From: an uncultured archaeon
GTDB taxonomy: Archaea > Asgardarchaeota > Hermodarchaeia > Hermodarchaeales > Hermodarchaeaceae
Assembly (NCBI GenBank): GCA_964347045.1
Contig: CAYFXC010000001.1
Location: 32,001 to 96,000, forward strand
Length of the DNA: 64,000 nt
Reading direction: 5' to 3'
In this document: positions 9,613 to 56,744 of the stretch, in pieces
Layout of the letters: each line of letters opens with the position of its first letter
Numbering within the stretch: position 1 is the stretch's first letter
Notes under the pieces: model-generated
What the model saw: the letters and a program-made list of their open reading frames with translations, nothing else
The model's database searches: none
What the model was told of the DNA's origin: nothing
Position numbers and translations under genes: made by a program

Positions 9613-9812
9613 GGGTCGATGGTCTAGATTCTCAGGAAACTAGCTTTCCTGGTCTAGTTTGGTATTGGACAAAGGATAAGTTCCTTCGAACCACCAAAGA
9701 TTCGCGGTTCGGGACCATGCGAACTATAAGTCTCATGGCGGGAATCCGTGAGATCCGGGGTTCAAAACCAGCCTGTATACGCCGGTTGGGGAAACTCCCC
9801 GTCGGCCCACCA
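9613..9812 (+). tRNA. tRNA-Pro(CGG) with four introns (9630-9659, 9666-9698, 9714-9744, 9767-9795)
   Basis: Removing the four BHB/BHL introns gives a 77-nt cloverleaf: GGGTCGA TG GTCT AGATTGGTA TGAT T CGCGG TTCGGGT CCGTG AGATC CGGGG TTCAAAT CCCCG TCGGCCC A CCA. Confidence 0.88.
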
Positions 9813-30948: not shown

Positions 30949-31045
30949 GCGGAGTTGGCGGAGCGGTAACGCGCTGGACTCGAGATGAACCGGGTCATCC
31001 AGTGACCTTTTGGTCGCAAGGGTTCAAATCCCTTACTCCGCGCCA
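30949..31045 (+). tRNA. tRNA-Ser(CGA) with a 12-nt canonical 37/38 intron (30985-30996)
   Basis: Long variable arm, G73, BHB CTCG/CGGG, encoded CCA. Confidence 0.92.
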
Positions 31046-54133: not shown

Positions 54134-54631
54134 TCAAAATGATGTGTGAAGAAATGCGATTTTAACTGCTTCTTTGCTGGTTCTAGCAATGTGAATATCG
54201 GCGTCAGGAAACAATGACTGGTTCTTTATAATCATTTGAGTAACTCCTCCTGTTCCTTTCATTAGAATTAACCGTTTATTCAATGCTATAGCATAGCCAA
54301 TCTCACTAAGAGTTCCACCGGATCCTGCCAGACTGATTATTGCATCGCTTGAAACTATGTTGATATAATTTCTGGCATAACCAATACCGGTAGCGAGTGG
54401 TATGTCAACGAAGGGATTTACTCCGGAATGTTGGTGCTCTGGTAAGATTCCGACAGTGATACCATTAACTGTTTTAGCGCCCCTTGATGCTGCTTCCATA
54501 ACCCCGTCTTTTCCCCCTGAAATCAGTACTGCTCCTCGTCGTCCAATTTCTTGACCTATTTCTTCGGCAATTTTTGATATTTCTTGAGATATTTTTCCAC
54601 TACTCCCAATAACTGCTATACGGATTTGCAT
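54134..54631 (-). CDS. LOG/TIGR00725-family nucleotide-binding protein
   Basis: IAVIG, GG..GVMEA, ARN, GTLSEI. Confidence 0.88.
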   Translation of the reverse strand: MQIRIAVIGSSGKISQEISKIAEEIGQEIGRRGAVLISGGKDGVMEAASRGAKTVNGITVGILPEHQHSGVNPFVDIPLATGIGYARNYINIVSSDAIISLAGSGGTLSEIGYAIALNKRLILMKGTGGVTQMIIKNQSLFPDADIHIARTSKEAVKIAFLHTSF

Positions 54632-54644
54632 AATGATTTCCTCC

Positions 54645-56744
54645 TTATTGCAAGCCTCTCCTTTTCTTGATTTCAGATATAATGGATACAGCGCGTTGTT
54701 CGGGGACAACTTGCCATCGAGCGAATTTCGTTTGCCAAATCGCTTTGCCTGACGTTTTCGAGCGTAATGTGTCAGCTAAGTCGAAGGACTCACCAACAGG
54801 TAAAGATCCGGTAATTGTTACCCAGTCTCTAGTGAATTCCACATCATCTACTTGTCCTCTTTTGGACATAATGACCTTATCAGTTTCCTTATGAAAATCA
54901 TTAGGGACAATAACTTGTATACTATAGATTGGTTCGAGAAGAGTAATTCCCGCTTTATTAAATCCAACGAAGATTGCCTCTCGTATCATGGACATTAGTT
55001 CTACTCTACTTCTTTCTGCTGGTTCAGAACTAAGCATAATATCCTCAATTTGAATTGAGGTGAGGCCGACTGGTTCTGCACATAGCGGTCCGCGTTCCAT
55101 TGCCCATTCGAATCCAGCTATTATTGCATCTTTTGCGGTTGGTGTTATTATGGTGTCTGTGAAATTGATGAGAATATTACCGCGAGAGTCCTTTTGCCAG
55201 ATATTCTCTTTTTTAATCATCTCTTTTTGAGGATAAACAGAGATGCGAATTGAATTCTTTCCGTTTGGGCTCATGTGATGTTTGTCTAATGTTATGTGGC
55301 TTCTAACTGTCTCGCGATAAAGTACAATTGGGTCTGATGCATATACTTGTATTCCAGCTTTTTCAATATCTTTCACAGCAATTTCCAAATGTAATAATCC
55401 CAATCCAGAAAGTAGATTTTCTCCAGTTTGTTCATTAACCAAAAACACAAGATTGGGGTCACCTTTGGTGAGGTTTTTGAAGAAGCTCAGTAACCGTGGT
55501 AAATCCTTCGTTTGTTTTGGCTCGATTGCTATGGTTACTACTGGTTCGCTAAGGTACGTTATTTCTTCAAATGGAACCATGCCTTGTATATTTTGTTGAC
55601 CGGTTATCGTATCGCCTGCCCGAACTTCTTCTGAACCAATTATGCCACAAATGTTACCTGCCGTTAAAGATGGAATTACTACTTGGCGTGAACCCATAAA
55701 CAAAGTAACTCGTTGAGTTTTGAATAATTTATTTGATGGGAAAATTTGTATCTGCGTTCCTCTTCTGATGGTACCTGAGAATAATCGACCAACGGCGATT
55801 AGGCCATGTTTGGATTCAGTAATTATTTTGGTGACACTAACAATAAGAGGGCCTTCTGAGTCACATGAACGAAGAGCTTTCCCTGCAGGAGAATTGATTT
55901 TACCTTTCCAAATGTATTGTACACGATCATTTTGAGCACTTTTGGGAGAAGGTAATTGACCAAGTATCATATTCAATATGGGCTCGTGAATAGGTAACAA
56001 TTGACTAAGATCCTCGATTGCATCACGTTGATATTTTTCAATAATGTCTTGAAATTGAAGATTTACTTTTTGAATTGACTCTACTGTGAATGCCCACTTA
56101 TGAAGAGCAGAACCAAAAGCCACCGTGTTAGTATCAGTTCCCACCTTCCAATTTACACTCGAATTTTCAGATGCAAACGTAATTATTTTGTTAACATCTT
56201 GAATTATCTGTGATAGCCGTTCTTGAATTTGCTTTGGTGAAAGTTTCAGTTCGCGAATAAGACGATCAATCTTGTTAATGAATAAAACAGGTTTAACTCG
56301 TTCTTTAATTGCCGATCGAATTACACTTTCTGTTTGAGCCATAACGCCTTCGACAGCATCTACAACTACGACCGCCCCATCAATAGCCCGTAAAGCACGT
56401 GTCACTTTTCCACTAAAATCAACATGACCTGGAGTATCAACTAGATTGACCACATATTGGGACCCTTGATAGTCATGGAGAAGCGAGATATTAGCGGCTT
56501 TGATTGTTATTGAGGCGTCTATGGTTCACCGAAAGACGTTTCCTCGCCGCTGCTCTTCTTCCAAATAGTCTAATGCTCGGGCTTGACCCACAAGATTGTA
56601 AGAAAGCATTCCGGCATTGGCTAGTAACGAGTCTGTAAGGGTCGTTTTTCCATGATCAATATGCGCAATTATCCCAACATTTCGAATATGGTCAGGATTT
56701 TTCATGAGTTCTAATAGTTCTTCGATACGTTGTTGACGGCTCAT
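54645..56744 (-). CDS. Elongation factor EF-2 paralogue; join(56744-56540, 56509-54645), 689 aa after removal of a 30-nt intron
   Basis: AHIDHGKTT, restored [18 protein letters not shown]; diphthamide loop diverged (SEPAERS). Confidence 0.9.
56510..56539 (-). other. BHB/BHL intron in protein-coding mRNA
   Basis: GAGG/CCTC central helix, AAA and AAT bulges, CGTCT/AGACG inner stem; in-frame TGA. Confidence 0.85.

Follow-up and report, generated by a model that had tools for sequence, protein, structure and literature searches.

The 64,000-nucleotide (nt) stretch analyzed here, referred to as the window, derives from the genome of an uncultured archaeon of the Asgard class Hermodarchaeia, and it encodes on its minus strand a paralog of archaeal elongation factor 2 (EF-2) known as aEF-2p. 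In this report, we found that 30 nt at positions 56539..56510 are very likely an archaeal endonuclease-type intron, i.e., one of the bulge-helix-bulge (BHB) kind, lying within the aEF-2p coding sequence. As such, the interruption represents both a new gene and a new phylum for endonuclease-spliced introns in archaeal mRNA. In the literature that we searched, archaeal mRNA introns of the BHB type have been documented experimentally for cbf5 only, and no account of introns in aEF-2p or in Hermodarchaeota was found.

A first-pass annotation of the window had placed a 30-nt insert with an in-frame TGA inside the switch-I motif, between RG and ITI. This placement is confirmed by translation and by matches to the NCBIfam aEF-2 profile (TIGR00490). 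Exon 1, which carries the P-loop (AHIDHGKT) and whose translation ends in ...EEEQRRG, matches profile positions 2-67 (E 2e-23), and exon 2 matches from position 69 (E 2.4e-181); therefore, removal of the insert gives a gapless RG-I-TIK. If read through, the insert would contribute ten extra codons (NVFR*TIDAS) between ...EEEQRRG and ITIK, whereas deletion of exactly these 30 nt brings back the universal switch-I sequence RGITI and gives a mature product of 689 amino acids (aa). It had also been proposed that cleavage after the second bulge base restores this motif. Indeed, the sequence itself shows that cleaving AA^A and AA^U behind their second base produces CGA GGA AUA ACA AUC, in keeping with the gapless aEF-2 profile, and the predicted spliced junction of the aEF-2p mRNA is CGAGGAAUAACAAUC. 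Because of the AA repeat, the intron boundaries can be slid by 2 nt with no change in the product. The cuts defined by the structure restore RG-I-TIK in the window genome and in all of the orthologs.

Several features bear on the identity of the gene. The window protein has the motifs AHIDHGK, RGITI (after the predicted splicing), DTPGH, and NKID, and it has no HxDxxHRG diphthamide His loop. A second EF-2 gene is found on contig 19 of the same genome, and its loop reads HEDPAHTK. Narrowe et al. 2018 (PMC6143161) describe aEF-2p as the diphthamide-less EF-2 paralog of Asgard archaea and Korarchaeota, and they ascribe an R-to-T exchange in the diphthamide loop to the aEF-2 of lineages having two paralogs. 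The window gene is likewise without the His loop, whereas the contig-19 copy keeps the His and has the R-to-T exchange. Thus, the interrupted gene is aEF-2p. Searching that publication for “intron” and “split” gave no passage on an interruption of the aEF-2p gene.

The minimum-free-energy (MFE) fold of window positions 56490-56565 (minus strand) consists of the helices AGCGGC/GCCGCU and GAGG/CCUC, a 3-nt AAA bulge, and the helix CGUCU/AGACG; it is identical to the structure drawn in the first-pass annotation. That drawing requires amendment in two respects. Of the two bulges, just the one on the 5' side truly measures 3 nt, the 3' “bulge” being the start of a 13-nt unpaired stretch in the window sequence, and the outer helix is not conserved. 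The elements follow one another in the order exon helix, central helix, bulge, intron helix, loop, intron helix, central helix, bulge. The BHB motifs of pre-tRNAs have the same order of elements, with the 5' strand of the central helix in the exon and the 3' strand in the intron, as in the canonical tRNA intron at position 37/38.

It is by conservation and covariation in relatives, and not by the fold of a single sequence, that the feature is shown to rise above chance. Covariation was assessed in 12 species, with controls in which the pairing partners were slid by 1-3 columns and with 500 shuffles. The consensus that RNAalifold predicts without guidance has three elements of 4 bp each (central helix, inner helix, and terminal hairpin) and a 3-nt bulge. 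Standard pairs occupy 97.2% of the cells in the 12 sequences, as opposed to 30-47% in the slid-partner controls, and the covariation score was matched by none of the 500 shuffles. Compensatory changes in orthologs, which had been put forward as a check on the first-pass annotation, are present: 7 of the 12 pairs have changed on both sides in these 12 sequences. The central helix GAGG/CCUC is paired in 100% of cells in the 12 species, with A-U replaced by G-C in four of them, and the inner helix is paired in 95.8% of cells, with three of its four pairs changed on both sides. The AAA 5' bulge is invariant in the 12 species. Further, the synonymous third base of the exon-1 Arg codon (A or G) covaries with a base of the intron (U or C). 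The outer helix is paired in only 54.5% of cells across 11 orthologs, and it is absent from the RNAalifold consensus. Because this helix is not conserved and the RNA at the 3' cut site is unpaired, the motif falls in the relaxed HBh' class; the strict hBHBh' motif is ruled out by the lack of conservation of the outer helix.

The window genome (2.58 Mb, 83 contigs, 89% complete) belongs to a class that is represented in the genome collection by two genera and 19 genomes. Twelve of the 14 other species of the genus have an ortholog of the window gene (65-75% identity), and the open frame in each of these 12 begins right at the first residue of the query. All ten genus orthologs with an assembled junction have an insert of 31 nt at the identical site, and the sister genus (G016) also has a 31-nt insert there. 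The insert is therefore common to all 12 class members whose junction is assembled, namely 11 species of the genus, including that of the window, and one of the sister genus. Two more divergent metagenome contigs (53-55% identity) also have the insert along with the same neighboring genes. In every copy read but that of the window, the insert is 31 nt long and breaks the frame; the lengths of 31 nt in 11 class members and 30 nt in the window exclude a read-through insertion.

The entries that match the window protein include some under the NCBI name Candidatus Hermodarchaeota. About 50 protein clusters of at least 51% identity consist of N-truncated or partial open reading frames (ORFs) of 425-666 aa, bar one intein-bearing form of 904 aa, and in four look-ups a GTP_EFTU mini-ORF of 57-72 aa lies just upstream of the truncated ORF. 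Uninterrupted relatives in the protein database begin at 47% identity or lower, and they are mostly EF-2 proteins of Bathyarchaeia. Since the aEF-2p genes of other Asgard families have no insert at this switch-I site, the simplest history is that Hermodarchaeia acquired the intron once, at the base of the class. A covariance model of the intron, run against the whole window genome, matched only the intron itself (E 3.8e-10; next match E 0.34), and thus the intron does not belong to any repeated family of sequences in this genome. A search for related loci among the genome contigs with the single protein as query returned no match.

The coding sequence on either side of the insert bears the marks of strong purifying selection. 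Among the orthologs, the exons have median ratios of nonsynonymous to synonymous substitution rates (dN/dS) of 0.07 (exon 1) and 0.10 (exon 2), and despite a dS of >1.7 there are no further stops or frameshifts across the 620+68 codons. Inactivating mutations in the downstream exon, listed in the first-pass annotation as evidence that would speak against an intron, were not found; at a dN/dS of 0.10, its frame is intact. In 6 of the 12 species, the stretch from the upstream in-frame stop to the ITIK codons contains no ATG, GTG, or TTG. Therefore, ITIK in those species would be translatable only as a continuation of exon 1.

The enzymes that such splicing would call for are present, as the genome encodes an alpha/beta pair of the endonuclease EndA with a crenarchaeal-type loop, which is the broad-specificity type, together with RtcB. 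There are two EndA paralogs. The one of 186 aa has the catalytic Tyr/His/Lys and gives a gap-free alignment with the Aeropyrum pernix alpha subunit (3P1Z_B), and this alignment spans the loop region YGxPLxxxKP of the alpha subunit of the A. pernix heterotetramer. The other, of 199 aa, is without the catalytic His, as expected of a beta subunit. RtcB was identified with 571 bits. Asgard archaea have been assigned an (alpha-beta)2 EndA carrying the L1 loop, an enzyme type that has been tied to the cleavage of relaxed motifs (PMC5829648, PMC3241643).

We propose the following course of events. In the pre-mRNA, the GAGG at the end of exon 1 would pair with the CCUC at the end of the intron to form the 4-bp central helix. 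The 3-nt AAA bulge and the stacked inner hairpin would complete the 5' half of the BHB, with the AAU of the 3' site remaining unpaired (HBh'). An alpha2beta2 EndA would cleave after the second base of each trinucleotide, and RtcB would ligate the resulting 2',3'-cyclic-phosphate and 5'-OH ends, giving an mRNA that reads ...CGA GGA AUA ACA AUC... and encodes the 689-aa GTPase. The intron would leave, probably as a small circle. The conserved site, the covariation, the selection on both exons, and the encoded enzymes all point to a requirement for EndA/RtcB splicing in the expression of aEF-2p, as the first-pass annotation had suggested.

Some observations weigh against an intron. Taken singly, the window sequence folds with ordinary stability (z = -1.76; 10 of 200 shuffles were equally stable). 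The motif departs from the strict hBHBh' form, as its 3' splice site lies outside any closed 3-nt bulge. The specificity of the EndA pair is assigned by homology, and all of the genomes are metagenome-assembled genomes (MAGs) of uncultured organisms. Further, no spliced form from near this clade occurs in the protein clusters or in the JGI contigs, which are mostly DNA assemblies. A degenerate 30-nt pattern of the spliced junction had 28 matches in the JGI contigs, none of them near this clade; with 35-48% identity over long alignments, and 52-65% only over short N-terminal stretches, these are uninterrupted EF-2 genes of other lineages and not spliced transcripts.

Three other explanations for the insert deserve consideration. 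The gene could be split without being spliced, such that a P-loop fragment (~72-84 aa) and a remainder of ~600 aa would form a two-piece GTPase, with the hairpin as an intercistronic element. Gene callers do give a GTP_EFTU ORF of 57-72 aa and then an ORF of 583-666 aa, and in 6 of the 12 species a GTG or TTG is present somewhere upstream of ITIK in the frame of exon 2. However, the alignment contains no conserved start or ribosome-binding context, and the six species noted above have no start codon at all between the in-frame stop and ITIK. This ITIK sequence, which includes the switch-I Thr, is in frame with exon 2 and abuts the predicted 3' cut, and the break falls inside one contiguous catalytic loop. 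The insert, moreover, evolves as a paired RNA with the geometry of a BHB, and the cut sites of this BHB match the codon junction. We therefore consider a split gene very unlikely. The insert could also be a lesion in a decaying paralog or an artifact of assembly. The lack of a known function for aEF-2p, the presence of a second EF-2 gene on another contig, and the MAG origin of all the genomes lend themselves to this idea, but at least 14 assemblies, made from different samples, contain the insert independently of one another, and a dN/dS of 0.07-0.10 with no other stops or frameshifts at a dS of >1.7 is not the pattern of a decaying gene. Its probability is practically nil, and we regard it as effectively refuted by these comparisons.

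Translational recoding would leave the RNA uncut and have the ribosome read through the insert, shift frame, or hop in the manner of T4 gene 60. The stable hairpin directly after the GGA codon loosely recalls the take-off site of gene 60, and the introns of cbf5 were once taken for frameshift sites (PMC2738675). Yet the mechanism would have to differ between the window genome, where a stop would be read through within 30 nt, and the other genomes, where a net frameshift over 31 nt would be needed. The inserted “codons” covary as base pairs and are not conserved as amino acids, the ten extra residues would fall inside switch I, and in no ortholog is the AUA at the 3' end preceded by a GGA on which the ribosome could land. 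Recoding is thus extremely unlikely. Programmed bypassing of the gene 60 type, which was considered by itself, was rejected because the GGA take-off codon has no matching landing GGA. Two further candidates were set aside. Decoding of the TGA as selenocysteine or Trp does not accommodate the insert being out of frame in 11 of 12 orthologs, and the insert is far too short for an intein, a group I intron, or a group II intron.

The intron in aEF-2p invites comparison with known systems. Introns in the cbf5 mRNA were reportedly studied by Watanabe in 2002 and by Yoshinari in 2006. The pre-mRNA of cbf5, which encodes the aCBF5 pseudouridine synthase, harbors a BHB intron of 16-44 bp in Crenarchaeota (Desulfurococcales and Sulfolobales), often with a relaxed motif (Yokobori 2009, PMC2738675). 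The putative aEF-2p intron is similarly short, resides in coding sequence, has a relaxed motif, and interrupts the codons around a catalytic residue; in both cases there is a link to hetero-oligomeric EndA, the intron is sometimes in frame and sometimes not, and the gene is annotated as two ORFs. The host gene is different, being a paralog of a translational GTPase in the Asgard class Hermodarchaeia. Also, the splicing of cbf5 was shown by experiment, whereas that of aEF-2p is deduced from comparison only.

A second parallel is found in tRNA. The tRNA genes of Asgard archaea are heavily interrupted (PMC11291895; bioRxiv 10.64898/2026.10.13.758758), and noncanonical tRNA introns with relaxed HBh' or BHL motifs are cut by (alpha-beta)2 EndA having the crenarchaeal-specific (L1) loop (PMC3241643, PMC5829648). 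The aEF-2p intron shares with these the 4-bp helix between exon and intron, the 3-nt bulge, the stacked inner hairpin, and the cut after the second base, and the same enzymes are presumed to act on it. Unlike tRNA introns, it is housed in an mRNA, with no tRNA body to aid recognition, and the exon half of its motif is constrained by the Arg-Gly codons rather than by tRNA structure.

The third parallel is with the eukaryotic HAC1/XBP1 system, in which IRE1 cuts stem-loops in an mRNA and a tRNA ligase or RtcB (the latter in metazoa) joins the ends. Both there and in the scheme that we propose, an mRNA is cut independently of the spliceosome, 2',3'-cyclic-phosphate and 5'-OH ends are ligated, and the intron blocks formation of the active protein. 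IRE1 and its recognition motif, however, are unrelated to EndA and the BHB. Further, HAC1/XBP1 splicing is a regulated stress switch, whereas a switch role for the aEF-2p intron would be speculative. One could imagine that aEF-2p is gated by the tRNA-splicing machinery, with the unspliced mRNA specifying only a P-loop stub and EndA/RtcB splicing serving as a switch, analogous to that of HAC1/XBP1, by which this GTPase would be coupled to the cell's capacity for tRNA splicing, but we view this notion as unlikely.

The significance of the intron lies in its setting: a cbf5-type intron would be present, class-wide, in a translation-factor paralog of the Asgard archaea, the prokaryotes most closely related to eukaryotes. 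If our reading is correct, the cutting and rejoining of mRNA by tRNA-splicing enzymes would be a regular step of gene expression in these lineages. Annotation pipelines would then systematically miscall such genes as a mini-ORF followed by a truncated “GTP-binding protein”, and these miscalled genes would bias phylogenomic protein sets. A substrate of ~76 nt is offered for assays of Asgard EndA/RtcB activity on mRNA.

Table 1. Locations of the aEF-2p exons, the predicted mini-intron and its structural elements, and comparable inserts elsewhere (window positions unless another contig or locus is given).
Feature	Location	Strand	Remarks
Exon 1 of aEF-2p	56744..56540	minus	68 codons and first base of the Ile codon; from translation
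Mini-intron, BHB-type (relaxed HBh'), predicted	56539..56510	minus	30 nt, in-frame TGA
Exon 2 of aEF-2p	56509..54645	minus	Last two bases of the Ile codon, 620 codons, stop
Central 4-bp helix, 5' strand GAGG	56542..56545	minus	Exon 1: Arg third base and Gly codon
Central 4-bp helix, 3' strand CCUC	56512..56515	minus	Intron; partner of 56542-56545
5' bulge AAA	56539..56541	minus	Predicted cut 56540/56539; unpaired in MFE and consensus folds
3' splice-site trinucleotide AAU	56509..56511	minus	Predicted cut 56510/56509; without a conserved closing outer helix
Inner helix, 5' strand CGUCU	56534..56538	minus	Partner of 56516-56520
Inner helix, 3' strand AGACG	56516..56520	minus	Partner of 56534-56538
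Outer helix, 5' strand AGCGGC	56546..56551	minus	Pairs with 56493-56498 in the window genome only
Outer helix, 3' strand GCCGCU	56493..56498	minus	Not conserved
dnaG insert	G000:C1:231141-231168	minus	Outside the window, 135 kb past its end; loci L096-L114
P-loop intron of aEF-2p, BHB-type, predicted	L028:1341-1397 (G036); L058, L059, L060 (G119, G158, G046)		

The interruption of aEF-2p is not the only one of its kind. The first-pass annotation had anticipated that other apparently split genes in this lineage might hide such introns, and this expectation holds for dnaG. In the window genome, that gene is split between FGQTEGL and LGEDLDL by a frame-breaking, BHB-type insert of 28 nt (GCCU AC^A ... 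GGGU AA^U). Each of the 18 class genomes that gave a match has such an insert, of 28-31 nt, and its inner helix shows compensatory changes. In addition, four species of another Asgard genus have a BHB-type insert of 31-32 nt in the P-loop codons of aEF-2p, between GHIDHG-K and TT. It shares the geometry of the switch-I insert, in that AUGG and CCAU form the central helix, the bulge is AAA, and a stacked helix is present, and its compensatory changes include a synonymous change in a His codon that is paired with a change in the intron. The P-loop intron is independent of the switch-I intron of Hermodarchaeia; the 5' motif GGAAAC is common to the two. Recurrent gain of BHB introns in the catalytic motifs of aEF-2p could mean that there is selection for interruption rather than neutral persistence, a reading that goes together with the unlikely switch considered above.

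Not every gene that was inspected is interrupted: actin and RNase HII of the window genome are each encoded in one uninterrupted frame. A genome-wide scan for BHB geometry that would merge two open frames gave 214 hits, compared to 208-226 in slid-partner controls, and a second pass gave 144, compared to 137-156; neither pass showed enrichment. The aEF-2p intron was nevertheless among the hits of the scan, as was the dnaG site in the looser first pass. Among the 20 longest candidates, none but aEF-2p had a convincing junction. The structural scan is thus without discriminating power, and the number of introns per genome cannot be read from it.

Other insertions in aEF-2 genes were also observed. 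In a further Asgard family, the G3 motif of an aEF-2(p) gene (L057, G041:C76:15100-15850, at about positions 447-480 of the locus) is interrupted between DTPG and HVDF by 33 nt that keep the frame and include a TAA. This insert forms a 10-bp hairpin, and 14 nt of it repeat the downstream exon directly (AACGGACATGTGGA). No register of the insert between DTPG and H gave a canonical BHB with the right product, and it may be an atypical intron, a duplication, or an artifact. Of a different nature is the 904-aa protein mentioned above (P0002), which is 84% identical to the window protein and has intein and LAGLIDADG Pfam domains. aEF-2p frames of 886-924 aa are present in L019 and L022 (G020, G031) and in G183:C131, and in these the match begins at about residue 31, which suggests an intein in or near the P-loop.

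Divergent relatives have kept the same order of genes around aEF-2p (window 54134-54709, minus strand; loci L061 and L062). Upstream of aEF-2p is a gene encoding 524-561 aa, and directly downstream is an LDcluster4 (PF18306) gene encoding ~164 aa. Elsewhere in the window, neither ARAGORN nor Rfam called a tRNA at 9613-9812. A 97-nt tRNA gene is present at 30949-31045 on the plus strand (Rfam tRNA, 53 bits), and ARAGORN could not assign it. By eye, it resembles a tRNA-Ser(CGA) that has a long variable arm and, following position 37, a mini-intron of ~12 nt.

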